Below are positions 988 through 12,791 of a stretch of 40,677 nucleotides of DNA, piece by piece. Location of the stretch: assembly GCA_026196145.1 (NCBI GenBank), contig JAPHTU010000168.1, forward strand, positions 1 to 40,677, in the 5' to 3' direction. Origin of the DNA: Gammaproteobacteria bacterium (GTDB lineage: Bacteria; Pseudomonadota; Gammaproteobacteria; JAJDYQ01). Under the pieces are notes generated by a model. The model was not told the origin of the DNA, did no database searches, and was given only the letters and a program-made list of their open reading frames with translations. Each line of letters opens with the position of its first letter. The stretch's first letter is position 1. The position numbers and the translations under genes are program-made.

Positions 988-1692
988 TCAGAAGTCGCCT
1001 GCAGCGGCGCGCTGCATAATGTCCTTGATTACAAAGCGTACCTTCAACGCTTCCTCTTTCAGAAAATCCGGTAAAGTTGCACCGCCCCATATCATCATGT
1101 CCATATCCAGTGCATACAGCCAAAGCTTGCCGGTCTTGTCCTTAATCATGGCAATACGACAAGGCAGGTAGGCTGAATAGGCATCGCTATGCTCAACCAT
1201 CTTCATCGCGGTCAACGGATTACAATACATATAGATTTTCAGGAACCGCTGCTCTTCACCCGTCATTAGCTTGACCTGCTCGGATAACGGTAGCTCACCA
1301 ACGGCCTTGATATTGTGCTCATTGGCGATATTTTTCATGGACAACTCCACGTCCTCAACGGTCAGGCCTTCCTCTACAGGGACCTTCCAGACAGTAGCAT
1401 CGGCGGTATTCCTGGTTTCAATCAGGCGGTCCATCATGCTTTGGTATACTTCCAGCGCCTTGGGATCCAGCTCGTCTCCCAGTTTAATCAGTGCAGCAAT
1501 ATCCCATTTTTCCATCACACCCATCATCGGTTCGATGCCTACCTCATCCACCCTGGCCATCATTGTCTGCAGTTTTTCCAGGCCAATGGCCTGTAGCTTG
1601 GCTATCATCGGTTGGTATGTAGCATAGCCATAGCCAACACCTATGATTACCAACAGACCAATCAAGGCCAGCAAATTACGTATAACCCCCAT
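988..1692 (-). CDS. Membrane-anchored DUF302 domain protein
   Basis: N-terminal hydrophobic segment and helical stalk, followed by DUF302-type YMYCNP and YLPCRI motifs. Confidence 0.8.
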   Translation of the reverse strand: MGVIRNLLALIGLLVIIGVGYGYATYQPMIAKLQAIGLEKLQTMMARVDEVGIEPMMGVMEKWDIAALIKLGDELDPKALEVYQSMMDRLIETRNTADATVWKVPVEEGLTVEDVELSMKNIANEHNIKAVGELPLSEQVKLMTGEEQRFLKIYMYCNPLTAMKMVEHSDAYSAYLPCRIAMIKDKTGKLWLYALDMDMMIWGGATLPDFLKEEALKVRFVIKDIMQRAAAGDF

Positions 1693-1864
1693 ACAACACC
1701 TCTCGTATATATTAAAAACCTGAAAACCAATCCATTACATCCAGGACACAGTTGAACCCTGTATGAATCTAATGAAGAAAAACCTGACTGGCCGAATTGG
1801 CCGATTCATTCTTGATATGAATACTGATTTATCTCAATAATGTTGCGACAAACCGGAAAAGCAC

Positions 1865-2878
1865 CTAGTGCGCAAGATATTCCCTGAGTAAGGCTGCCTG
1901 CTCCTGGTCGATATTGTACACAATACCCAGTACCAGCTCGGCACGTTGCATGTCATTATTCCTCAACAGGCGCAGGAAGGCCTCCGAATATGCATTGACT
2001 GCCAGCTCTATTTCCCCCTTGGAGAAGTAGATATTCCCAAGCTCACCGGCAAAGTCAGGGTGGTTTTTGAATTCTCTAACCAGCTGGCCGTAAAGCATGA
2101 TGGCCTTGTCATGATTACCCTCGTGCCATGCGAACCGTGCAGCCGCCAAACCTGCCAGCGCCTTCTGCTTACGGGAATCGATGTCCTCTGGTGCTGTATC
2201 AGTGGCCCCCTGATCCTGGGTGGCACTGGTATCAGCTGCTGGCATCTCGGTGGCTGTTTCTGCGCCATCAATTGGTGTGGACATACCCGCCGACTCCTCG
2301 GTATTTGAATCCTTCGGTGCTTCCATCGACTCAACCAGAGGTTCCAGGGCAGACATAGACTCGGCTGCTGACTCAGTCTTCACGCCTACCGGGGATTGCT
2401 TGGCTTGCTCCAGTACAGGCTGGACGACAGGCTCATCAACATCAGAAGGGAACTGAACAGGTGCAGATGCTGCTTGTTGTTCTTTTTCAGTACTTCCGGG
2501 GTCTATCGCAGGTGTATTTGTAACGACATCCACTGGAGCGGGTATTGCCGCTTCCTCCGCAACCTCTTTTGCAACTGTTGATGTGGACTCAGCCGGCTTG
2601 CTGGGCCCCGGCCACTGTATGGCATCGGTAGTTGCTGATGGCTGCACCTCGTCTGCTGCTGGTGTGGCTGCTACGGGTGCTTGCTGCGATTCAACAGTCC
2701 GGGGTAACGAGGCTTTCGGTTTAACCGCCCCAGCGACAGGTCGATTGATCTCCCGGCTAACGCCCGAATAATCAACAATATCGTCAATCAGGGCCTGAAA
2801 TGCGCTATGGCTGTCATATAGGTACCAGCCGATAACAAGAAGGATCAGGAATGTAATAATCTGTGGTACGACTTTCAT
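1865..2878 (-). CDS. Membrane-anchored protein with a long acidic/Pro-rich linker and C-terminal TPR-like repeats
   Basis: TM helix at about aa 5-21, ~200 aa of A/P/E/S/T-rich low complexity, and TPR-like helices (GELGNIYFSKGEIELAVNAYSEA). The start overlaps the ParA-family gene stop (ATGA). Confidence 0.75.
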   Translation of the reverse strand: MKVVPQIITFLILLVIGWYLYDSHSAFQALIDDIVDYSGVSREINRPVAGAVKPKASLPRTVESQQAPVAATPAADEVQPSATTDAIQWPGPSKPAESTSTVAKEVAEEAAIPAPVDVVTNTPAIDPGSTEKEQQAASAPVQFPSDVDEPVVQPVLEQAKQSPVGVKTESAAESMSALEPLVESMEAPKDSNTEESAGMSTPIDGAETATEMPAADTSATQDQGATDTAPEDIDSRKQKALAGLAAARFAWHEGNHDKAIMLYGQLVREFKNHPDFAGELGNIYFSKGEIELAVNAYSEAFLRLLRNNDMQRAELVLGIVYNIDQEQAALLREYLAH

Positions 2879-3513
2879 TGTTTCTGCTTTCCTTTGTACA
2901 GAGCATTTACCAATGCCAATGTTTCCATGGCTGCTTTTCCTCTGGGCTCCAGTTCGTATACAGCCAACCCTTCACTAAAGGATCGTCTGAATCCGGTTCG
3001 TTGCCCCAGTCGACAATCCAGCACCGAAATCTCGGGGATGGTCGATAGTGCGGCCGCCGCCTCGTCAGACTCGCGTACCGCATGGTGCGTGTCCGCCCGG
3101 TTAATAAAGGCCACCATCTCAGGCAGTTCCTGTGGCCGGACCTCCTGCACGATTCTTAAAAAGCGTTGAGTGGACCAGATATCTGCCTGGCTGGGTGGCA
3201 CTGGAATCAGTACCCTGTCAGCCAGAGATAACGCAACCTTCATACCGTCAATGTTGGCAGAACCTACATCAACCAGCACCTCATCATTATGTGATGGCAG
3301 TCTCTGTTGAAGCTGGCTGTCAGGCAGGTAAACCGGGAATAATGGCTCAAAGCCTTCTTCCTCACGGATCGTCATCACATCATGTAATGTCATTTGAGGA
3401 TCGAGGTCATAAGCAACAACAGACCGGCCCGTCATGGCCAACCATACACCCAGATTGAAAGAAACCGTACTCTTTCCAGCGCCCCCTTTCAGGTTACCTA
3501 TAACCGTAATCAC
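2875..3513 (-). CDS. Short orphan ParA/MinD-family ATPase (no N-terminal HTH)
   Basis: Deviant Walker A NLKGGAGKST, DLDPQ, and ADRVLIPVPPS; 212 aa with a GTG start. Confidence 0.92.
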   Translation of the reverse strand: MITVIGNLKGGAGKSTVSFNLGVWLAMTGRSVVAYDLDPQMTLHDVMTIREEEGFEPLFPVYLPDSQLQQRLPSHNDEVLVDVGSANIDGMKVALSLADRVLIPVPPSQADIWSTQRFLRIVQEVRPQELPEMVAFINRADTHHAVRESDEAAAALSTIPEISVLDCRLGQRTGFRRSFSEGLAVYELEPRGKAAMETLALVNALYKGKQKQ

Positions 3514-3568
3514 TGCCTAAGACACCATCTTGAAAATCCTGTCGTCATGGTAATGAGACTATCATAAG

Positions 3569-4111
3569 TTAATAAGGCACCGAACTATTTCCACCGAAAG
3601 AATAAGGCATAACACCATAGCCCGGCAACACCTGTGGCCGGGTATAGTAAGGACTTGATCCCCGGGGCCAGTTATTAAGAGGCGTATTGGGATAAACAGG
3701 CGGGTTATATGGCCCCTGATAGGGCGCATAGCGCCAGTCATACCCACCGGGGTAGCCGGGCATATAACCCGAATGGCCGCCGTACGAAGGTGATACTTGC
3801 TGACGCTGTGTTCCATAATCCAGTGGTCGATAACCCCGCTCCTCCGGATCTACCAGTGATGGTAATTTTTCACAATCGTCAGCTTGTGATCTCGGTCGCC
3901 AATTTTCAGATGACTCTGATGAACCGTTGTCATCAGCCATCTCATTTTGTTCCTCTATGGTGAGCGGTCGATAACCATCGCCCTCATACAAGGCCTTCTG
4001 GATCAATCTAGTCTGCAGCTCTTCCGGGCAGCTATCCTGCGCGAATACTGGCAGGGCAGAAATAGATAGAAGAGCAGCAGAAAAACAGATACCAATCGGT
4101 CCTGGCTGCAT
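3569..4111 (-). CDS. Exported hypothetical protein with duplicated GYRPL motif and Pro/Tyr/Gly-rich C-terminus
   Basis: Sec-type signal ending VFA|QD. The start overlaps the upstream stop (TAATG at 4113-4109). Confidence 0.7.
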   Translation of the reverse strand: MQPGPIGICFSAALLSISALPVFAQDSCPEELQTRLIQKALYEGDGYRPLTIEEQNEMADDNGSSESSENWRPRSQADDCEKLPSLVDPEERGYRPLDYGTQRQQVSPSYGGHSGYMPGYPGGYDWRYAPYQGPYNPPVYPNTPLNNWPRGSSPYYTRPQVLPGYGVMPYSFGGNSSVPY

Positions 4112-4452
4112 TATCTGGGCTCACCCGTAGGGGGATAGCCGTAACCGCGCCCTGGGTGGCTTTGTGGATAGTAATTTTCCGGGTTCATGACTGGATTATT
4201 ACCACGCTGATAACGTCTCTCTGGTGCACTCCAGCGCCATTCACGCGCCTTATTACGGTCTGCCTGTTCGGGGGTCTCCTCAACAGCTTGCGGTTGCATT
4301 ACCGGCATTGGTCTGGAAACAGGTGCCTGATTAAATTCATCTTCAATCGACTGGTACGGTCCGATGGGTGCGGGAGGCATGGCGCAGACCAGGGACACCA
4401 TAAAGAAGCCTATACAGGAAATAATAAGCCGCCATATATTAAATGAGTTCAT
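4111..4452 (-). CDS. Small exported Pro-rich hypothetical protein (~113 aa; ORF extends to 4518)
   Basis: ATG at 4452 gives a signal-like MNSFNIWRLIISCIGFFMVSLVCA, then PPAPIGPYQS and a YYPQSHPGRGYGYPP tail. Translationally coupled to the next gene. Confidence 0.6.
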   Translation of the reverse strand: MNSFNIWRLIISCIGFFMVSLVCAMPPAPIGPYQSIEDEFNQAPVSRPMPVMQPQAVEETPEQADRNKAREWRWSAPERRYQRGNNPVMNPENYYPQSHPGRGYGYPPTGEPR

Positions 4453-4646
4453 GATATCTAACCGGTTATTGGTGCCGGGCAATAATGTATCACAGGCTGA
4501 GATATCTGGCAGCGACATTAGCCTGCATTTCCCGGCAGGCGGAATAATATTGATAGAACCCGATGAGATGATTGAACGGTGGAGGAACTCTTTAAATAAA
4601 GACAGCTTTATACCAGCCTGCTCCGGAATCCGCTGAGACAGGCCCG

Positions 4647-7600
4647 CTAGATATTGGGATTAAGCCTGATACCGCGTCGATTGCCGCGTGAACGTGCGGG
4701 TACTTTTGGTACAGGTGGCTTGACTGGCGCAGCCTCGGGCTGGGCTGTCGTCTTCCCATTACCATTGCCGTTACTGCTGGCACTTTTACTTACTGGCGTA
4801 TCCATATTTACCTTTGGTGTTTTTGGTTCAGGCGGATTAACGGTCATACCTGACTTCGCCCTGACTGCCGGTCTCTTACGTGCAGTTGGAATGCTGGCAG
4901 CCTTGGCCTGCTTTTTACGTGCTACACGTTTTTTGACAACCGGCACCGGTTTCTCAATGACGGGCTTTGTCTCAACCACCGCCTCGATTGCATCGGGTTT
5001 TGAACTGGTGCCTGCCTTCGACTCTACAGGCGCAGCCTTGTTAACAATGGGTTTCTTTGTGGCTACGGCACCGATAGTTTCCTGTTTTGAGCTGCTGTCC
5101 GGCTTCGGTTTTACAGGCGCAGGCTTGTTAACCGGAGATCTTGTCGCTGCTTCGACACCAGTAGTTTTCTGCTTTGAACTGGTGGCCGGCTTTGGCTTTT
5201 CTGCTGCAGGGATCTTCTTTGTTTCCGCTGATTTTTTCGCTACTCGCTTGCTGCCACTGGCATCCTTCCTGGCGCGTTTCTTCTTCGATTTTTTCCTGGC
5301 CTTGGGTTGTTCGCTGACAACTTCGATCTTCTCTGTAACGGTTTCCTGCTGTTTCTTTATAGCAACTGCCTTCTCAGCCCTTTCTTTCTCAACTCTTGCT
5401 TTCTCAGCCCTTGCCTGACGAATCTGCCTTGCCTGTGCCTCAAATCTCTCACGACCCACGTGATAGGCCTTAACGGACTTTTTGGCGGCCGCAGTCAGTG
5501 CCATATATGCCATGATAGCCAACGCTCGCAACATATAAAATGACATTGCACCGATCGCACTTGCCTTGGCCAACGTGCCCTCGATCCAGCCGCCGGTAAA
5601 GCCACCGCCACTGGGCTCATCACCGCCGTCGGTCGACAATAACTCACAATCAGGACATAGATTACTGCCCGCAGTAATACATCCCAGAGGAATAACCACC
5701 AGTGTAAGTACTGATGAAATCAGCACTCCAAACAATAGTGAGATTGCCATACCCTGGAAAATAGGGTCAGTCAGTATCACAAACGAGCCAGCCACCAGTG
5801 CCAACGCAGTGATAATAATAGGGCGTGTTCTGGCCCGACAGGCTTCAACGACGGCCTCGGCGTTGGTCTTGCCATCCTTGACCTCATGGATTGCAAAATC
5901 CACCAGCAGGATTGAGTTGCGCACGATAATTCCGGCCAGCGCAATAAACCCGATCATGGAGGTGGCGGTAAATTCTGCGCCGAGTAGTGCGTGACCTGGA
6001 ATAACACCCAGCATGGTAAGCGGAATAGGCGCCATGATAATCGCCGGGACCAGGAAGTTACCAAACTCCCAGACAACCAGGATATAAATCACGATCAGGG
6101 CAACGGCAAATGCCAGCCCCATATCACGGAAAGTTTCATAGGTGACCGTCCATTCACCACCCCATTCAAATGCGGAGTGCCCGGTATCTTCCGGTGTCGT
6201 CATGAAAGTTCCGCTCATGTAGGCACCATCAACCGTGCGGTTTTCTTCCAGCTGCAAAGCATCATTGATTTTCAGCATCGGGTAGATTGGCGCACCCAGA
6301 CGCCCCACGGCATCACCAACAACATACTCAACGGGACGCAGATCCTTGTGGTAAATAATCGGATCCTGCTCGGCACGCACAAAGCGGCCCAGTTCAGCCA
6401 ATGGAATCGTGCCCTGACCACCTGGCATCGGGATCGGCAAATCACCCAAGCTGCTCATATCCGAACGTTCAGACAGGGGAATTTCAAGCACGATATAAGT
6501 GGGCTCCAGTTGTTTGCCACGCTTGATATCACCCAGACGTGAGCCACCCAGCGCCATCGACAGGTTGCGGTTAATGGTATCGACAGAAATTCCTCGCCTG
6601 ACCGCCTTTTCTGCATCAACTTCAAAACGCCAGACCTGATAGCCGTCCTGTAGATAGTTATCAACATCGGCCATACCTTCAGTTTGCTCAAACACCGCAG
6701 TAAGTTGGCGGGCAACGTTACGTCGGGTATCGGCGTCCGGGCCATAAATTTCTGCGACCACAGTTTGCAACACTGGCGGACCTGGCGGCATTTCAACAAC
6801 CGTCGTTTTGGCACCCTTGCCATTTTCAGGTGGATGCAGGCTGTTATAGTCAGCCACCATTTCATTAACCAGCGCGCGTGCCTGCTCTGCCAACTCATGG
6901 CTACTCTCACTACGCTTGTTCTTGTCTCTCAGCTGCACCTGTATTTCGGCCTGCCAGGGCTTGTCACGTAGATAGTAATGTCGAACCATGCCGTTAAAGT
7001 CGAATGGCTTTGCGGTACCAACATAGGTTTGCAAGGCCGTCACATGCGGCACCTCTTCACGCAGGCGTTCAGCGATTCTGTTGGTCAGGTTGGCAGTCGC
7101 CGGTACTGCGGTACCACTAGGCATATTGATGACAACACTGAATTCCGGCTTGTTATCAAATGGCAACATTTTCACCGGCACCCACTTGATATAGAAGAAG
7201 GAACAGACCAGAAAGAATACAGCGATCAGACCAAACAGAAAGATCTGACCCTTACGCCGGTCTTCAATCAATGGCACCAACGTTTTCTCGATGACCTTAC
7301 CGACTCTCGCATTGTCACGCTCCTCATCATGCTCAGCTTTTTCCAAAGCGATCATGCCCGGCTTGATACGCATGGCCAGCCAGGGGACGAAGACAAACGC
7401 CGCGAACAGGGAAAGCATCATGGCGACCGAACCCAGCGCCGGGATTGGCGACATGTAGGGCCCCATCAAGCCGCTGACAAAGGCCATCGGCATCAATGCA
7501 GCAACCACGGTAAATGTCGCCAGTATGGTCGGGTTACCGACTTCACGCACGGCATCGACCGCCGTTGCCGTGTCGGTCTTGCCTACCGCCAGCCAACGCC

Positions 7601-8960
7601 GATAAATATTCTCAATAACAACAATGGCATCATCTACCAGAATGCCGATCGAGAAAATCAACGCAAACAGACTCACCCGGTCGATAGTAAAATCTCCCAA
7701 CCAGGCGGCAAAAACTGTCATCAACAGAACTACCGGGATCACCAGCGTGACAACGAATGCCGGTCTCCACCCCAGGAAAAACCAGACCAGTAACGTCACA
7801 GCGCCGGTTGCTATAAACAGCTTGAGAATCAGCGCATTAACCTTGTTCCTGGCCGTTTCCCCGTAATTTCGGGTGACCTCAACATGCATATCCGGGGTGA
7901 TCAGGCCAATGTCCGGGCTTTTCAACGACTCGATTTTCTGCAGAATATCCTCGGCGACCGTGACACCATTACTGCCAATCTTTTTTGCAATGGCGATGGT
8001 CACTGCGGGCATGCCATGAGCCGCAGCATTTTCGTTTTCCAGACCGCTGTAATAGGTCACCATGCTTTTCGGCTCTTCGGGTGATTCCTTCACATCCGCC
8101 ACATCACGAACATAAACAGGCGCATCATTACGCGTGGCAATCATCAGGTTGGCAACATCACTCGCCGTCCTGAGAAATGATCCCGTATAAACCGTAAAAT
8201 GCCTGCCCGAAGATTCGGTACTACCGGCCTTTTGTTCGCTGTTTGCAGTCCGTATGGTATGCGCAACCTGATCCAGGCTGACGTTATAACCTGACAGGCG
8301 CTCGGGTCGAACCTCTACACGTATCTGCTCTCGCAGACCACCGACAACAAAACCGGGACCGGTATTGGGGATTTCTTTCAGGCGTTGCAGGACATCATTG
8401 GCAACGGTGCGTAACTGACCCTGATCCATGTTCTCTGACCAGAGTGTCAGGGTCACTGCCGGCACATCATCAATACCCACGGGTTTTACCAGTGGTGGCA
8501 TCACGCCGGGCGGTATCTTGTCCAGATTGGACTGTATCTTGTCATGCACCTTGACGATTGAGGGCCCGAGCTCCTCACCAACGATAAAACGTACCGTCAC
8601 CATACCCTGGCCCCGTTCGGCCGCCGCATACACATGCTTGACGCCGGGGATCTCGCTCATAATCCGTTCCAGTGGTTCAATTGCCAGGCTGGATACTTCT
8701 GCCGATGTGGCGCCGGGATACTGCACATAGATATCAATCATCGGTACCGATATCTGGGGATCTTCCTGACGAGGGGTGAGTATCAGCCCCATAATGCCCA
8801 TGGCTAACATGGCAAAGAACAGTAACGGGGTGATAGGAGAATGAATAAAGGCCTGCGCCATACGACCGGCCAGCCCAAGGTCATCACCATCGGAGACGGC
8901 TTCACCTTGAATCGGGTATTTCCGATCGGTATCTTTTACACTTTTATTGTCGCTGGCCAT
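4647..8960 (-). CDS. RND permease (AcrB/AcrD/AcrF family) with a ~340-aa C-terminal extension
   Basis: TM4 ILVDDAIVVIENI, TM10 GIIVRNSILLVDF, and TM11 RTRPIIITAL. The core ends near aa 1093 of 1437. Confidence 0.95.
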   Translation of the reverse strand: MASDNKSVKDTDRKYPIQGEAVSDGDDLGLAGRMAQAFIHSPITPLLFFAMLAMGIMGLILTPRQEDPQISVPMIDIYVQYPGATSAEVSSLAIEPLERIMSEIPGVKHVYAAAERGQGMVTVRFIVGEELGPSIVKVHDKIQSNLDKIPPGVMPPLVKPVGIDDVPAVTLTLWSENMDQGQLRTVANDVLQRLKEIPNTGPGFVVGGLREQIRVEVRPERLSGYNVSLDQVAHTIRTANSEQKAGSTESSGRHFTVYTGSFLRTASDVANLMIATRNDAPVYVRDVADVKESPEEPKSMVTYYSGLENENAAAHGMPAVTIAIAKKIGSNGVTVAEDILQKIESLKSPDIGLITPDMHVEVTRNYGETARNKVNALILKLFIATGAVTLLVWFFLGWRPAFVVTLVIPVVLLMTVFAAWLGDFTIDRVSLFALIFSIGILVDDAIVVIENIYRRWLAVGKTDTATAVDAVREVGNPTILATFTVVAALMPMAFVSGLMGPYMSPIPALGSVAMMLSLFAAFVFVPWLAMRIKPGMIALEKAEHDEERDNARVGKVIEKTLVPLIEDRRKGQIFLFGLIAVFFLVCSFFYIKWVPVKMLPFDNKPEFSVVINMPSGTAVPATANLTNRIAERLREEVPHVTALQTYVGTAKPFDFNGMVRHYYLRDKPWQAEIQVQLRDKNKRSESSHELAEQARALVNEMVADYNSLHPPENGKGAKTTVVEMPPGPPVLQTVVAEIYGPDADTRRNVARQLTAVFEQTEGMADVDNYLQDGYQVWRFEVDAEKAVRRGISVDTINRNLSMALGGSRLGDIKRGKQLEPTYIVLEIPLSERSDMSSLGDLPIPMPGGQGTIPLAELGRFVRAEQDPIIYHKDLRPVEYVVGDAVGRLGAPIYPMLKINDALQLEENRTVDGAYMSGTFMTTPEDTGHSAFEWGGEWTVTYETFRDMGLAFAVALIVIYILVVWEFGNFLVPAIIMAPIPLTMLGVIPGHALLGAEFTATSMIGFIALAGIIVRNSILLVDFAIHEVKDGKTNAEAVVEACRARTRPIIITALALVAGSFVILTDPIFQGMAISLLFGVLISSVLTLVVIPLGCITAGSNLCPDCELLSTDGGDEPSGGGFTGGWIEGTLAKASAIGAMSFYMLRALAIMAYMALTAAAKKSVKAYHVGRERFEAQARQIRQARAEKARVEKERAEKAVAIKKQQETVTEKIEVVSEQPKARKKSKKKRARKDASGSKRVAKKSAETKKIPAAEKPKPATSSKQKTTGVEAATRSPVNKPAPVKPKPDSSSKQETIGAVATKKPIVNKAAPVESKAGTSSKPDAIEAVVETKPVIEKPVPVVKKRVARKKQAKAASIPTARKRPAVRAKSGMTVNPPEPKTPKVNMDTPVSKSASSNGNGNGKTTAQPEAAPVKPPVPKVPARSRGNRRGIRLNPNI
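4938..5198 (-). repeat. Three tandem 87-bp (29-aa) degenerate repeats in the RND tail
   Basis: KPKPATSSKQKTTGVEAATRSPVNKPAPV / KPKPDSSSKQETIGAVATKKPIVNKAAPV / ESKAGTSSKPDAIEAVVETKPVIEKPVPV. Confidence 0.85.
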
Positions 8961-8988
8961 ATCAAACTATAAAAATTATCACGCACAA

Positions 8989-9016
8989 AGCTTCCGGCAT
9001 TTTCATGCCAGAAGCT
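8989..9016 (-). promoter_or_regulatory. Intra-operon stem-loop between the adaptor and permease genes
   Basis: Minus strand AGCTTCTGGCAT-GAAA-ATGCCGGAAGCT: a 12-bp stem with one G-U pair and a GAAA loop. A second hairpin, CCCGGG-N6-CCCGGG, lies at 9038-9055. Confidence 0.5.
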
Positions 9017-9064
9017 CCACTCCTGTTCCTCAATCGACCCGGGAACTAACCCGGGGCTTCCCCC

Positions 9065-10270
9065 TCAACGCCAGTCTTCAATAACCAGCGTGTCGTTTTT
9101 ATTCAGTCCGGATAAAACCGCAATATTCTCGCTATCCACCGGGGTACCCAGTCGCACGTAACGACGTTCCTTACGATTCTTCTCCGGGTTCCATACATAA
9201 ACCGCCGGCAGGCTGCCACGTTGACGGCTAATTACCGCTTTCGACGGTATGACAATATGCTCCTGCTGTTTGGAATCCGGCTCAGGCACAATCACTTCGG
9301 CGTACATACCTGGAGTCGCCGGGTCATTTTTCTTCAAATCTATTTTAACTGTTACGGTATGACGTTCACTATCTGCAACGGGATACTTCTGTGCAATACG
9401 ACCTTTGACAACGGTTTTAGCCGGGTCATCCAGGCGCACAGCCACATACTTTTTGTCCTGTATACCCGCCATCAAGCGCGATGGCACATCAACCTTCACC
9501 TGCAGATATTCCAGATTAGAGAAAAGCAGTAAATGTTGCCCCGGCTGTACGGTGTCCCCGATTTCAACCAGCTTGCGTGCTATCACACCATCAAAAGGCG
9601 CAACTGAACGCGTATCTCGTAATTTTGCAGACAGCTCATCCAGGCGAGATTGTGCCTGTGTAATCTGGGAGCGAGTCTGGTTTAGTTGTGTGCCCTGTGC
9701 ATACAGGTCGCTATAGCGCTGCACATCAGGATCGTAGTTGCTACCCATGCTGCCAAAATTCTGGGTAAACATTGAATCAAACAATGCCGGCATACCCATG
9801 CCCGGCATGCGATTGATATTCTTGGACTGTGGCGACCACAGTTCACGGTTGTATTGCACACCGGCATTACGGGCCGCCAGCCTTGCATTTTCCAGCATGG
9901 CAAATGCGGAACGCTGCTGTGCCAGCAGGTCATCATCATCGATGCGAATCAATTCAGCGCCCTGCTTGAACCATTCACCCTCAAAACCGGCAATATATTC
10001 AATACGTCCAGGCATCTGCGCGGCAAGCGTGACCTCCTGAAAAGGAATGACAGTGCCGCCCAATGTAGCAGCACCGCCAATCTTCATGGTTTTTACCGGA
10101 ACATGATTAGCCCGTGAAGCTGTTTCCTGTTGCTGAAGCTTGCCTTGATAACCGTATTTCTGCCCGGTTGTCTCGGCCTGGCTGTACTGCAGCAATCCAA
10201 TCAAAAGAATTGCCACGATCGCAGACAAGCCGGTTTTTATAGCCCCAGTTTTTATTATTAACTTCATCAA
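9065..10270 (-). CDS. RND periplasmic adaptor (membrane fusion protein); start may be ATG 10267
   Basis: N-terminal hydrophobic anchor, lipoyl half-motifs (LAAQMPGRIE and VAPFDGVIARKLVEIGDTVQPGQ), PGMYAEV, and C-terminal VLSGL. Confidence 0.92.
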   Translation of the reverse strand: MMKLIIKTGAIKTGLSAIVAILLIGLLQYSQAETTGQKYGYQGKLQQQETASRANHVPVKTMKIGGAATLGGTVIPFQEVTLAAQMPGRIEYIAGFEGEWFKQGAELIRIDDDDLLAQQRSAFAMLENARLAARNAGVQYNRELWSPQSKNINRMPGMGMPALFDSMFTQNFGSMGSNYDPDVQRYSDLYAQGTQLNQTRSQITQAQSRLDELSAKLRDTRSVAPFDGVIARKLVEIGDTVQPGQHLLLFSNLEYLQVKVDVPSRLMAGIQDKKYVAVRLDDPAKTVVKGRIAQKYPVADSERHTVTVKIDLKKNDPATPGMYAEVIVPEPDSKQQEHIVIPSKAVISRQRGSLPAVYVWNPEKNRKERRYVRLGTPVDSENIAVLSGLNKNDTLVIEDWR

Positions 10271-10298
10271 TAATCTAATCTCGTCCCATGCCTATAAA

Positions 10299-10700
10299 TT
10301 AGTCAGAAACCTGACCCATTGCGGCAAAGCTCTTGATAAAAGGACCGGCCATGCGCGGATCTTTTACCATTGCAGTGTAATCGCCTACATTAAACTTCAG
10401 TTTGCGCGTGGTGTACGCAGTACCCAGACCCATCATGCCGGGTGGCTTGCTGATCCATTTCCCCCAGTGATCTTCACTGGCACGCAAATCCCAGTTCAGT
10501 TCCTGACCGTCATATTCACCAGCGCTGACGGCTTTGCCATTCTCAATGGACAGGACACCACGAGGGCTATCTTCACCATCAATTCCATACCCGATAACAG
10601 AGTTAAAACTAATCTTTTCCAGCTCCTCAAACAGGCCCGGATCCGAGTTCCAGGCCTCTGCGAAAGATTGCATCCAGCCATCAGAAAAAAGTTGCGACAT
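10299..10700 (-). CDS. SCP2 sterol/lipid-binding domain protein
   Basis: LFSDGW..FAEAWN start, a strand-rich middle, and AYTTRKLKFNVGD, resembling the SCP2 A..xGKLKxxGD motif. Good RBS (AGGAGG). Confidence 0.75.
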   Translation of the reverse strand: MSQLFSDGWMQSFAEAWNSDPGLFEELEKISFNSVIGYGIDGEDSPRGVLSIENGKAVSAGEYDGQELNWDLRASEDHWGKWISKPPGMMGLGTAYTTRKLKFNVGDYTAMVKDPRMAGPFIKSFAAMGQVSD

Positions 10701-10718
10701 TGTATACCTCCTTAGGTA

Positions 10719-10749
10719 AAAATTTTGTCTTAAAAAGCGACAAAATTTT
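10719..10749. promoter_or_regulatory. Perfect 11-bp inverted repeat upstream of the SCP2 gene (candidate operator or RNA hairpin)
   Basis: AAAATTTTGTC-N9-GACAAAATTTT, 19-49 nt upstream of the start codon. Confidence 0.45.
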
Positions 10750-10853
10750 AAATCAAACAGGATTTTTAAGTGTCAAACCCTTTCTATGGGCGAATCACCG
10801 TGACGTATAACGGCTATAATCAAATAAAGGAATATTAGTATATTACTATTTCC

Positions 10854-12404
10854 TTAAATATCAAGCGGTTTTTCTTTTTCCCGCTCCTCTTCCGTTACTT
10901 TTTCCTGGTCTATTATTTCTTCTACATCAGCTGTTGCTGTGCTGCTGGTGACCTCATCCTGCCAACTACCATCAGGCTGGATATGCGAGTCATTCAGTTG
11001 CTTGATAAAAGTACCCGCACGAAAATAAATACTCGATAAACGCCGACGATTAAGATAGTGCCAGCCACTCGGCGAGCGCATGAACAGACTCCTGAATGGA
11101 CCGGTAGATTTCACAAAAGCCTTGTCCAGTGCATCGACATCAAATCCTTCCAGCTTGTGCTCATCAGACGTCGGTCTAAATCGTTGTTGCGCAAACCGTC
11201 TGAATCCGAAATGAAAGATAGCAAGGGTACCTACAACCAATGCAGCCAACAGCCCCTTTAGTATCATGCTGTCGAATATGGTCTGGACAAGCGCTGCCGG
11301 CGTGTATTGAAGGCCTGACCATTCGCCAGTAAACAAAAGCATAAAAAGCGCTGCTACACCCATTGTTATCAACACGGCAGCATCAGCGAACAATACAAAG
11401 CGGCGCCAGTCACTAATACGTTCCTTTAGTTCCGGTACTACGGATTCTTCGATATGGTGGCATTGGTGACGCAATGAGTCGGCAACCCGGTAGATTCGCT
11501 GCACCTCCACCAGTTCCAGACGCTCGTCGAGATCGGCCATGTCCTGCTCACGCCAGTCAATCAAACGCCTTGCGGCTTCCTCATTCTCGATATGTGTACA
11601 TGCCGTCTGGCTGAAGACGCGGTAAAAGCGCCCTGCTGTCAGGCCCTTCTGTGCCAGCGCCCTTTGCCATGCAGCGACAACATCTTCCAGATTATTCTCA
11701 TCTGCCGTGACATCAATCTGGTTGAGGATGTAGATAAACTTGGTTGCATCATGGCGGGCAATTGCCTTTTCAACCAGATGTTCAAGCGTATCGCGGATAG
11801 CGCCGGGTTCTGGTCGGTGGGCATCAAAGAACACCATCACCAGATCAGCGCGGTCAATAATCCTGTCCGCTATCCTCAGCGTTGCCGTGCGCTGCTCATC
11901 GGCATCAAACCCGGGTGAGTCAACCAGTATCTTGCCCTTTAGCTTCTCGCATGGACAGGTCTTGATCTGCAAGTAACTATCCAGCTTGCGACCCTCACCC
12001 TTGGCGACCCCTTCAATCTCCTTACCAACGGAATAAAAGGGAAAACGCGGGTCAGCGTCCAGCGCCGTACCAGGCAGGGTTTTTGAGTGGCCATCTCCGG
12101 CGTAGCAGATGACAGAAAACTTGTCGTCCACCGCCTGATGCCCTGTACGCTGCAGGGAGAATTCAAGGTAATCGTTAATGAAAGTCGATTTGCCCGCAGA
12201 AAATGTGCCTAGCACCGCAATCAATGGCCACCAGGACACCCGATCTGCGTATGACTGGCTGCGTGATAGTAAACCCATACGATAGGCAACCTGGTCCAGC
12301 TGCTGGTATTCATCGACCAGCTCTGCCAGACGTGGCTGCTCTCCCCTCAGGTAGGACTGAAGCTCATGTAAATGTTGAGCCAACTGTTCGGCAGTCTGAT
12401 CCAC
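10854..12404 (-). CDS. Dynamin-superfamily, EHD-like membrane NTPase with two TM segments
   Basis: G1 GTFSAGKST, G3 DSPG, FFDAH, G4-position NQID, and two hydrophobic helices at about aa 337-400. GTG start preceded by GAGGAG. Confidence 0.85.
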   Translation of the reverse strand: MDQTAEQLAQHLHELQSYLRGEQPRLAELVDEYQQLDQVAYRMGLLSRSQSYADRVSWWPLIAVLGTFSAGKSTFINDYLEFSLQRTGHQAVDDKFSVICYAGDGHSKTLPGTALDADPRFPFYSVGKEIEGVAKGEGRKLDSYLQIKTCPCEKLKGKILVDSPGFDADEQRTATLRIADRIIDRADLVMVFFDAHRPEPGAIRDTLEHLVEKAIARHDATKFIYILNQIDVTADENNLEDVVAAWQRALAQKGLTAGRFYRVFSQTACTHIENEEAARRLIDWREQDMADLDERLELVEVQRIYRVADSLRHQCHHIEESVVPELKERISDWRRFVLFADAAVLITMGVAALFMLLFTGEWSGLQYTPAALVQTIFDSMILKGLLAALVVGTLAIFHFGFRRFAQQRFRPTSDEHKLEGFDVDALDKAFVKSTGPFRSLFMRSPSGWHYLNRRRLSSIYFRAGTFIKQLNDSHIQPDGSWQDEVTSSTATADVEEIIDQEKVTEEEREKEKPLDI

Positions 12405-12791
12405 GCTTACTCCTCAATAATTGTTGCCAAGCATAGCGATAAAAAAAGCCCCTCTACAGGAGCCTGGTCAATTTCATGCTGATTAGCCGGGCAGAACCAA
12501 CAATGCCTTGCGAAAAAGGGCGACAGGAACTGGATTGCAGCTTGCGTAGTCCATATAGCACCCCGGTTAAATCCGAAGAAAGTTTAACCGGGTACCTCGT
12601 GACATGCAAAGCAATAGCGTGATTCGGCACTACCACCAGAAACGCCGCAAAACGCCATATCGGCAATGCCTGTTGTCCTTTACCTCCAAGCAATATAAAA
12701 ATGACCTCAATCAATATATTATGTGCGGTTATATGGCAGCCTTGACGGCCTAATAATAATCAACTATTCCCCGACATATAGCAGGTACACG

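Follow-up and report, generated by a model that had tools for sequence, protein, structure and literature searches.

What function could unite a dynamin-like NTPase, a transport pump, small exported proteins and a ParA-type ATPase in a single array of genes? The question is raised by positions 988-12404 of a 40,677-nt stretch of gammaproteobacterial DNA (contig JAPHTU010000168.1 of assembly GCA_026196145.1), the whole of which is termed here the window. It is contig C33 of a 2.8-Mb assembly in 359 contigs, with a completeness of 93.8%; other contigs, genomes and loci are cited by our C, G and L numbers. A preliminary description of this DNA had portrayed the array as a machine that invaginates membrane, moves a hydrophobic cargo such as zero-valent sulfur or a lipid into the periplasm, coats it and spaces the inclusions. 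On comparative grounds, we consider it rather probable that the nine genes are a copy of a conserved module for the biogenesis and positioning of sulfur globules in sulfur-storing Pseudomonadota. This degree of confidence covers action on globules; each mechanistic step is held less firmly. Conservation of the array, its linkage to sgp genes, its co-distribution with the sulfur globule protein (SGP) family and dsrA, the co-variation of a pump motif with ParA, and the protein folds are directly established.

ORF calling revealed nine same-direction open reading frames (ORFs) on the minus strand. They are listed below from the first to the last gene, together with the parts of the resistance-nodulation-division (RND) protein; TM denotes a transmembrane segment.

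10854..12404, minus strand: EHD-like dynamin-superfamily NTPase, 516 aa (Dynamin_N, E 9e-12; EHD4 and EHD2 the best PDB relatives)
10299..10700, minus strand: SCP2-fold cytoplasmic protein, 133 aa (AlphaFold2 and Foldseek only)
9065..10270, minus strand: RND periplasmic adaptor, or membrane fusion protein (MFP), 401 aa (TIGR01730, E 7e-49; HlyD_D23)
4647..8960, minus strand: RND protein, 1437 aa (ACR_tran, E 5e-144, residues 34-1092)
5661..8960, minus strand: RND permease body, residues 1-1100 (ACR_tran, 12 TM, proton-relay motifs)
4647..5660, minus strand: RND C-terminal tail, about 340 aa (extra hydrophobic helix and Lys/Pro/Ala-rich linker)
4659..4679, minus strand: C-terminal peptide RRGIRLN (family consensus RRGIRLK), proposed ParA-docking motif (conservation and complex model)
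4111..4518, minus strand: small exported Pro-rich protein, 135 aa (signal-like segment, composition)
3569..4111, minus strand: exported Pro/Tyr/Gly/Ser-rich protein, 180 aa (signal-like N-terminus, composition)
2875..3513, minus strand: orphan ParA/MinD-type ATPase, 212 aa (CbiA, E 1e-13; deviant Walker A)
1865..2878, minus strand: membrane-anchored TPR protein, 337 aa (sub-threshold TPR matches; overlaps parA by 4 nt)
988..1692, minus strand: membrane-anchored DUF302 protein, 234 aa (DUF302, E 3e-11)

From the NTPase gene to the DUF302 gene, the intergenic distances are 153, 28, 104 and 128 bp, a 1-nt overlap, 55 bp, a 4-nt overlap and 172 bp. The ORF coordinates thus agree with the earlier account of nine co-oriented genes with two start/stop overlaps and gaps under 200 bp, all gaps being below 175 bp. 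Linkage of these genes recurs in many distant genomes, which places the arrangement far beyond chance.

Conservation of the gene array

Conservation of synteny, on which the preliminary description had staked its proposal beforehand, was found in 12 of 20 distant loci and in all five loci examined from another class. Within the genus, loci L002-L007 keep the gene order. For the distant comparison, 20 kb around the EHD-like gene were taken from 20 distant Gammaproteobacteria and analyzed by tblastn and ORF clustering. In the 12 positive loci, other module genes adjoin the EHD-like gene in shuffled order, the linked set comprising the genes for the SCP2, MFP, RND, ParA, TPR, DUF302 and EHD-like proteins. 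The usual order begins with a divergent sigma-54 activator, followed by SCP2, MFP, RND, one to five small exported proteins and a DUF4412 periplasmic protein, and continues with ParA, TPR, DUF302, a membrane protein with a Met/Asn/Ser-rich coiled coil and the EHD-like NTPase. The activator adjoins the operon in seven loci, with TGGCAC-N5-TTGC sites upstream in L063, L068 and L070, and in 10 of the 20 loci the EHD-like gene is preceded by that for the Met/Asn/Ser-rich membrane protein. In three loci the pump operon and the NTPase gene point away from each other; the array in the window starts with the NTPase gene. Since the linkage survives rearrangement, it argues for a shared function of the module genes.

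The module extends beyond the class. In another class of the same phylum, pump orthologues with tails, 57-65% identical, occur in 46 genomes, and all five loci inspected (L131-L135, from G409, G415, G412, G470 and G724) retain the module and the same RRGIRLK tail end. L131-L134 contain SCP2, MFP, RND and DUF4412, three of the four also having ParA and the Met-rich protein (L134 ends at a contig edge), and L135 keeps MFP, RND, DUF4412, ParA, TPR and the NTPase.

Co-distribution with sulfur globule proteins and dsrA

Profiling against sgp and dsr genes had been suggested as a check, with a distribution unrelated to globule-forming taxa as grounds for rejecting the idea; in this test the pump was found to track both SGP and dsrA, in favour of the proposal. 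The sample consisted of 400 genomes of the class (G253 unscored for the EHD-like protein and the pump). A pump orthologue was defined by at least 50% identity; because only two candidates per genome were scored, the pump counts are floors. Among the 400 genomes, 127 possess dsrA, 51 an SGP match and 72 the pump. The pump and SGP occur together in 48 genomes, the pump without SGP in 24, SGP without the pump in 3 and neither in 325 (odds ratio 217); the corresponding figures for the pump and dsrA are 66, 6, 61 and 267 (odds ratio 48), with Fisher P values that overstate both associations because the genomes are related. The family-level counts and the physical embedding of sgp genes are independent of P values. 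The pump is present in 48 of the 51 SGP-positive genomes versus 24 of the 349 others, and in all 33 SGP-positive families; 16 further families carry the pump without an SGP match. The three SGP-positive genomes without a pump are G263 (81% complete), G315 (87% complete) and G003, a member of the window's own genus, in which the pump is internally broken at one locus (L004).

The EHD-like protein was identified at full length in 85 of the 400 genomes (43-50% identity) and in seven of the eight genomes of the order. It occurs with the pump in 59 genomes, the pump alone being found in 13, the NTPase alone in 26 and neither in 302; for the NTPase and SGP the figures are 45 with both, 40 with the NTPase alone, 6 with SGP alone and 309 with neither.

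The pump tail and the ParA ATPase

The RND protein of the window continues beyond its permease body into a tail that consists of a hydrophobic helix (FYMLRAL) and a low-complexity linker rich in Lys, Pro and Ala (net charge +43). Its orthologues, with tails of 62-370 aa, likewise show a hydrophobic helix after TM12, with a FYxxRA core, and a low-complexity linker of about 60-370 aa that is usually basic (net charge -9 in L061 and 0 in L073). In L070:6608-10801 the pump tail comprises approximately 35 AEKAE/AAEKA units. The tails end in a peptide of the form [RK]GI[RKQ][LI], typically RRGIRLK, located no more than 30 residues from the C-terminus and invariant as R-R-G-I-x-L in the tail alignment. 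It was found in 10 of 13, 38 of 40 and 5 of 5 tails in three sets (53 of 58 overall), the 38 including L108, whose RKGIRL variant escaped the regular expression.

The occurrence of this peptide co-varies with ParA. In the first set, all nine loci with an adjacent ParA have the peptide, and the three genomes without it (G168, G317 and G256, of three families) contain no ParA orthologue genome-wide at E <= 1e-20; in G025 the peptide is present and ParA lies on another contig. In the second set, for which up to 9 kb was fetched, ParA was found near the pump in 26 of the 38 peptide-bearing loci, six having too little sequence. The peptide is also present in G120 and G388, where ParA is encoded elsewhere in the genome, and in G027, which has a 36% ParA match nearby.

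The ATPase itself belongs to the ParA/MinD superfamily. Its Walker A motif reads NLKGGAGKST, and K9, G10, G11, G13, K14, S15 and T16 are invariant in nine orthologues; the match to NF041546 reaches 135.4 bits against a cut-off of 180. The protein is 51-61% identical in eight distant loci, with an invariant PPSQADxW patch. The parA gene is followed by the TPR gene and preceded by an exported-protein gene, with no adjacent ParB or centromere. It had been described as an orphan ParA, and it is indeed a deviant Walker A ATPase with no adjoining ParB or centromere-binding partner, which points to a protein cargo.

ParB, MinE and McdB dock their ATPases through peptides, and the docking proposed for the pump tail would be alike. 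The ATP-bound ParA dimer was modelled together with the final 45 residues of the tail, which gave a score of 0.65, compared to 0.03 for the best of three controls. The score passes a mark that 58 of 80 solved complexes and 2 of 110 mismatched pairs attain, in a calibration that does not extend to our own alignments and ATP ligands. At least 60% of the contacts coincide between runs, and the partner pLDDT is at least 47. On the peptide, the modelled contacts involve residues 36-42 and 45 of the 45, i.e., RRGIRLN. On one copy of ParA they involve residues 107-109, 112-113, 116-117, 120, 148, 151-152, 155 and 158-159, and on the other copy residues 45, 49, 53, 177 and 180-182; many of these positions do not vary among the nine orthologues. 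The model supports binding of the tail peptide to the ParA dimer. The earlier idea that an orphan ParA spaces the inclusions thereby gains a concrete handle, a tail peptide that co-varies with ParA and is modelled on its dimer. This proposed link between ParA and a transporter tail is new.

The pump and its periplasmic adaptor

The remainder of the pump is that of an RND superfamily permease, with 481.7 bits for ACR_tran and 12 TM segments. Both proton-relay motifs are kept (VDDAIV in TM4 and RNSILLVD in TM10), and with these residues intact the pump is probably an active transporter. Scores are below the cut-offs of the named subfamilies: 413 bits versus 1250 for the HAE1 multidrug model NF033617 and 260.8 bits versus 701.45 for the CusA/CzcA model TIGR00914; CusB scores E 0.003.

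Hydropathy indicates a single N-terminal TM segment in the MFP. Its alpha-hairpin tip, which in other adaptors is the docking place for TolC, carries a Met-rich insertion of approximately 40 aa (PGMGMPxMFDQMFT) that is kept in all 14 aligned orthologues. No family of outer-membrane factors (OMFs) was detected in the nine genes, the scanned flanks or the conserved neighbour clusters of the 20 loci; the search did not include the rest of the genome. The two had been designated a TolC-less RND pair, and to this extent the designation is appropriate: MFP and RND are confirmed, with no outer-membrane gene in the cluster or among its conserved neighbours. The funnel of the MFP probably meets something other than TolC, and we suggest the globule coat or its contents as its partner.

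Other versions of the pump were observed. In a same-genus metagenome-assembled genome (L004:11771-13048), the MFP match is followed directly by the final 116 residues of the pump tail and the pump body is missing, which reflects either a deletion or a misassembly. The window's own genome (G000) codes for a second MFP/RND pair at C69:1258-5805, 43% and 57% identical to the pair in the window, which is tail-less and has no adjoining SCP2 or ParA gene. Tail-less copies of the pump also occur in other genomes, e.g., G016, G235 and G384.

SCP2-fold, EHD-like, TPR and DUF302 proteins

The assignment of the 133-aa protein to SCP2 is borne out by its fold. It has no sequence match in Pfam, NCBIfam or the PDB (a PDB profile search returned 0), and its AlphaFold2 model (pLDDT 90) retrieves SCP2 2cx7 as the top Foldseek hit (TM-score 0.78, E 6e-7), followed by UbiJ-SCP2; 13 PDB chains with E <= 0.001 belong to SCP2 or UbiJ-SCP2. 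The protein is 60-68% identical in seven distant loci and, by hydropathy, lacks a signal or TM segment. Its modelled fold makes it likely that it carries a hydrophobic ligand.

The NTPase is a member of the dynamin superfamily (Dynamin_N, 45.7 bits against a cut-off of 27). Its nucleotide-binding motifs are G1 GTFSAGKS, G3 DSPG and G4 NQID in place of NKxD; GTFSAGKS and DSPG are kept in 20 of 21 homologues, where G4 reads NQ[IMV]D. A hydrophobic hairpin was located by hydropathy at residues 336-397, approximately. The description of this protein as EHD-like is upheld in two ways, as EHD4 and EHD2 are its closest solved relatives by sequence (E 9e-10) and EHD4 is the best match by fold: the AlphaFold2 model (pLDDT 78) retrieves EHD4 5mtv first (E 2e-12), then bacterial dynamin-like proteins, IniA and mitofusins. 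Membership in the EHD family proper is not indicated, as the family scan gave no EH or EF-hand match and the model ends in helices beyond the hairpin; judged by the models, EHD4 is only the closest solved fold.

The TPR protein has an N-terminal TM segment, a long acidic linker rich in Pro, Ala, Thr and Glu, and a putative C-terminal TPR domain, and its last 100 aa are conserved in seven distant loci. Its identification as a TPR protein holds for a relative (L063:3295-4392), which passes TPR_14 with 25.6 versus 23.5 bits, but in the window the matches remain sub-threshold (best TPR_19, 24.3 bits versus a cut-off of 25). There is a weak match to MamA (E 0.0018). For the DUF302 protein the earlier assignment is correct, with 43.3 bits against a cut-off of 23; it has a single N-terminal TM segment, and its orthologues lie within the module in 6 of the 20 loci.

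Exported proteins and sgp genes

In the relatives, the products of the small genes that separate the pump from ParA carry signal peptides and are rich in Gly, Tyr and Pro, and some of these proteins are SGP proper: four of the 23 intervening exported proteins match Pfam SGP, with a best E of 1e-15, and no relevant family emerged from an NCBIfam scan of the same 23. Seven of the 30 intervening ORFs had been left out before the Pfam scan, as they were judged spurious or outside the module (L061:8502-9350, with masked N, L068:6173-6940, L068:6927-7799, L075:9491-9919, L075:8181-9494, L075:7732-8136 and L079:5581-6369). Of the 48 genomes positive for both, 15 have an SGP match no more than 3.5 kb from the pump; in the other class, G409 and G415 have one at 4-5 kb.

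The window's two small proteins, which had been described as exported and rich in Pro, Tyr and Gly, have signal-like N-terminal hydrophobic segments by hydropathy and compositions of this kind (P 13%, G 11%, S 10% and Y 9% in the 180-aa protein). In the 135-aa protein the segment follows an internal Met, and the true start is therefore probably near 4452. Neither protein has a Pfam match in the family scan. The 135-aa protein has weak relatives at the same position in L003 and L005, the 180-aa protein has 12 homologues, all unnamed, and both resemble the relatives' non-SGP Pro/Tyr-rich proteins in position and composition. The suggestion of coat proteins finds support in the relatives, which have SGP-family genes inside the module; the window's own pair are not SGP members. 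The window's genome does contain dsrA and at least five SGP-family loci, scattered singly.

Two ORFs of relatives are of interest in their own right. L068:6927-7799, between pump and ParA, consists of about 30 PQGYG units and may be a real ORF. Directly after the pump, L063:6570-7490 encodes an exported protein whose ends are rich in Pro, Ala, Gly and Tyr and whose centre is a long, charged coiled coil (weak SPX match, E 1.6e-4), which recalls, by description only, SgpD as a possible coiled-coil protein in the accessible text of PMC10386293.

Proposed role and alternative explanations

We propose the following scheme. At its core, the RND/MFP pump of the inner membrane, whose cluster includes no gene for an outer-membrane partner, would work on the periplasmic sulfur globule. 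The cytoplasmic SCP2-fold protein would serve the pump as it moves a hydrophobic cargo between membrane and globule; candidates for this cargo are zero-valent sulfur, polysulfane, or an organic or lipid end group. The globule would be coated or modified by the Sec-exported, Gly/Tyr/Pro-rich products of the genes that lie between the pump gene and parA. The RRGIRLK peptide of the disordered cytoplasmic pump tail would dock the ATP-bound ParA dimer, and the cytoplasmic ParA could thereby space and partition the inclusion across the membrane. The membrane around the globule may be shaped or stabilized by the EHD-like NTPase and by the two membrane-anchored proteins, TPR and DUF302. Of the machine envisaged in the preliminary description, the link to globules is thus supported, but invagination, cargo and direction are what we infer. 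As a tentative extension that we regard as doubtful, globules might be genetically encoded organelles equipped for their own biogenesis and partition. RND/MFP, served by SCP2, would then form the long-sought conduit for zero-valent sulfur, or its organic end groups, between the periplasmic globule and the cell, the RRGIRLK-tipped pump tail would be the transmembrane handle through which the cytoplasmic ParA spaces and segregates the inclusion, and the EHD-like NTPase might sit at the neck of the membrane pocket as EHD2 does at caveolae.

Several observations weigh against this reading, in addition to the limits attached above to the P values and the complex score. The support is comparative, and we infer every biochemical step. 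Among the pump-positive genomes, 24 of 72 lack a Pfam SGP match and 6 lack dsrA. In the window, neither the 135- nor the 180-aa protein matches Pfam SGP (PF17228, cut-off 26.7 bits) at E <= 0.1, and the SGP genes of its genome are on other contigs rather than at the module. The relatives' module adds the DUF4412 protein, the Met-rich membrane protein and the sigma-54 activator, such that its core differs somewhat from the nine genes of the window. The EHD-like gene is the widest and most loosely linked member: of its 85 carriers, 26 are without the pump and 20 have neither SGP nor dsrA, the gene stands alone at 8 of the 20 distant loci, and in G024 and G240 the module is present without it. 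(Of the eight NTPase-only loci, three belong to genomes that hold the pump elsewhere, namely G081, G124 and G276, and five to genomes with only a 39-45% paralogue or nothing.) Exceptions also exist to the pairing of peptide and ParA: G124 and G329 have the peptide and only 41% ParA matches, G242 has a variant motif and no ParA, and in L098 (G274) ParA lies beside a short, peptide-less tail. The pass of the complex model may reflect likeness to solved ParA/MinD-peptide complexes. Finally, the hydrophobic helix that follows TM12 might cross the membrane as a 13th segment, in which case the tail would be periplasmic.

The alternative that deserves most attention, unlikely as we hold it to be, is efflux or envelope protection in sulfur oxidizers, wherein the pump would remove toxic hydrophobic sulfur species (polysulfides, organosulfur) or repair the envelope during sulfide oxidation. 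In the same unlikely case the sgp neighbours would share only regulation with the pump, and ParA would merely distribute pumps along the cell. This is in keeping with an RND and MFP that are ordinary by family, with an intact proton relay, and with a distribution that follows sulfur oxidizers generally, as 66 of the 72 pump carriers have dsrA and 24 have no SGP match; the EHD-like gene, moreover, occurs without any sulfur marker, and in the accessible text of PMC10386293 Allochromatium vinosum SgpD, a coat protein encoded beside an exporter, is non-essential. However, the link to SGP is much tighter than that to dsrA, 61 dsrA-positive genomes lacking the pump, and the coat-type genes are embedded in the operon-like array, which is more than being nearby. 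The absence of an OMF gene from the cluster, together with the altered MFP tip, speaks against expulsion from the cell. A distinctly less probable explanation is trafficking of lipids, quinones or hopanoids, or membrane remodelling, in which SCP2, the OMF-less RND pump and DUF4412 would supply membrane for invagination and the tie to sulfur would be indirect. The SCP2 fold does resemble lipid carriers, including UbiJ-SCP2, the set includes an EHD-like membrane remodeller, DUF4412 is conserved in the relatives, and RND lipid exporters that act independently of an OMF exist (HpnN and MmpL3). Lipid trafficking nevertheless leaves the embedded SGP genes and the near-perfect co-distribution with SGP unexplained, and no lipid-synthesis genes are found among the conserved neighbours.

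The last two candidates concern metals and phosphate. Cus-type handling of Cu(I)/Ag(I), which the preliminary description had offered as an alternative in view of Met-rich motifs, could invoke the Met-rich MFP loop and the relatives' Met/Asn/Ser-rich periplasmic coiled-coil protein; it finds no support in the low CusA/CzcA and CusB scores given above, CusC and CusF genes are missing, and the distribution follows SGP and dsrA, all of which renders it very improbable. Least probable of all is a polyphosphate-granule system, suggested by an adjoining island dense in phosphate and polyphosphate genes and by the polycationic tail of the window's pump. It was dropped because none of the 23 island proteins matches six same-genus, module-bearing loci at E <= 1e-5; the tails of relatives, furthermore, can be neutral or acidic (L073 and L061). 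The sulfur-globule module remains the explanation that we favour.

Genomic setting of the locus

The adjoining island, which is not beside the module in the six same-genus loci, comprises the following genes.

12723-34297, phosphate/polyphosphate genes: PPK1, two-domain PPK2, CYTH, two PHO4, PhoU_div, and a Na/Pi cotransporter with a PhoU domain
12723-34297, other genes of the same island: CBS, CitMHS/ArsB-type transporter, Usp, two CNNM/CorC Mg-type transporters, His-phosphatase plus NUDIX, NUDIX, and Exo_endo_phos

A terminator-like hairpin is located at 12446-12465 (minus strand), directly upstream of the NTPase gene. A sigma-70-like site, TTGATA-16-TATACT (10/12), occurs at 10837-10864 (minus strand), at the end of the NTPase gene and upstream of the SCP2 gene, and the pump operon may therefore have its own promoter. 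A sigma-54 promoter in the window was considered and dropped, since matches to the consensus TGGCAC-N5-TTGCW (21, none of them upstream of cluster genes) are no commoner than in shuffled sequences (mean 27.6). DNA matching the stretch comes from marine sediment metagenomes; no RNA data set is listed as matching window positions 2500-12404.

Two further module components of the relatives were sought in the window's genome. The Met/Asn/Ser-rich membrane protein is encoded off-module, at C258:5268-5837 and C135:2584-3165, and one copy adjoins recA-like and spoT/relA-like genes. A spoT/relA-like gene also flanks the module in L061, which suggests that the module was moved in this genus. A homologue of DUF4412 was not found in this genome, 93.8% complete, with one query.

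Relation to previous work on sulfur globules

No description of this gene set was found in the literature searched, subscription texts and supplements being outside its reach. The combination had been presented as undescribed, and the nearest statement in print, in the accessible text of PMC10386293, is a remark that sgpD of A. vinosum adjoins an exporter and a regulator. In that text SgpD localizes to globules, is induced 28-fold on sulfide and is not essential (PMC10386293). As far as it is accessible, the paper treats coat proteins only and does not present the exporter or further neighbours as a system; it calls the chemistry of globule sulfur controversial and lists only coat proteins as known components (PMC10386293). 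The sgpD neighbourhood, as reported there, fits the order found here, and its exporter is a candidate, the orthology of which to the window pump could not be checked. A CzcABC-type pump and Alvin_1738-1741 (PMC11267869) were considered as well and are not this module.

Old questions about globules concern their nucleation, feeding, emptying and inheritance, the chemical form of the sulfur, and its route to the cytoplasmic rDsr. The module provides a short list of candidates: the pump, its adaptor, the SCP2 carrier, ParA, the EHD-like NTPase, and the DUF4412, DUF302, TPR and Met-rich membrane proteins. These questions become directly testable, because A. vinosum is genetically tractable and appears to carry the exporter beside sgpD. 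The RRGIRLK peptide and ParA offer a sharp and cheap test. If true, positioning of a periplasmic cargo by ParA via a transporter tail would be a new use of this ATPase family.

Comparison with known systems

All parts of the module come from known protein families; the system is new. Like the tripartite RND pumps (AcrAB-TolC and CusCBA) and the OMF-independent HpnN and MmpL3, the window pump has a 12-TM ACR_tran body and a proton relay, and its MFP shares the barrel-sandwich and hairpin domains of the tripartite pumps. Unlike the latter, it has no OMF gene in its cluster, a Met-rich insertion at the hairpin tip and a long tail with a putative docking peptide, and it scores below the cut-offs of the named drug and metal RND subfamilies. 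A deviant Walker A ATPase is common to the window and to ParABS, MinDE, McdAB (carboxysomes) and ParC/PpfA (chemoreceptor arrays). As in other ParA/MinD systems, a short basic partner peptide is modelled at the interface of the ATP-bound dimer, but in the window this peptide is the C-terminus of an RND transporter on a flexible tail of 60-370 aa in the family, the presumed cargo is periplasmic, and the ATPase falls below the NF041546 cut-off.

EHD and bacterial dynamin-like proteins (BDLP, DynA, IniA and Campylobacter DLP1/2) have in common with the window NTPase a dynamin-type G domain, a helical stalk and a membrane-inserting hairpin. The window protein differs from EHD in the lack of an EH domain and in its G4 motif, NQ[IMV]D, and from the bacterial dynamin-like proteins in its smaller size of 516 aa. 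With SgpA-D of Allochromatium vinosum the module shares Sec-exported proteins of the Gly/Tyr/Pro-rich type, true Pfam SGP members being found in the modules of relatives, in contrast to the window's two small proteins. By analogy, the magnetosome island likewise devotes a gene cluster to an inclusion, with membrane proteins, transporters, a positioning ATPase and a TPR protein, the last of which is putative in the window. Homology between the two goes no further than generic TPR; the positioning NTPase of the module is of the ParA type rather than actin-like, and its proposed inclusion is periplasmic sulfur.

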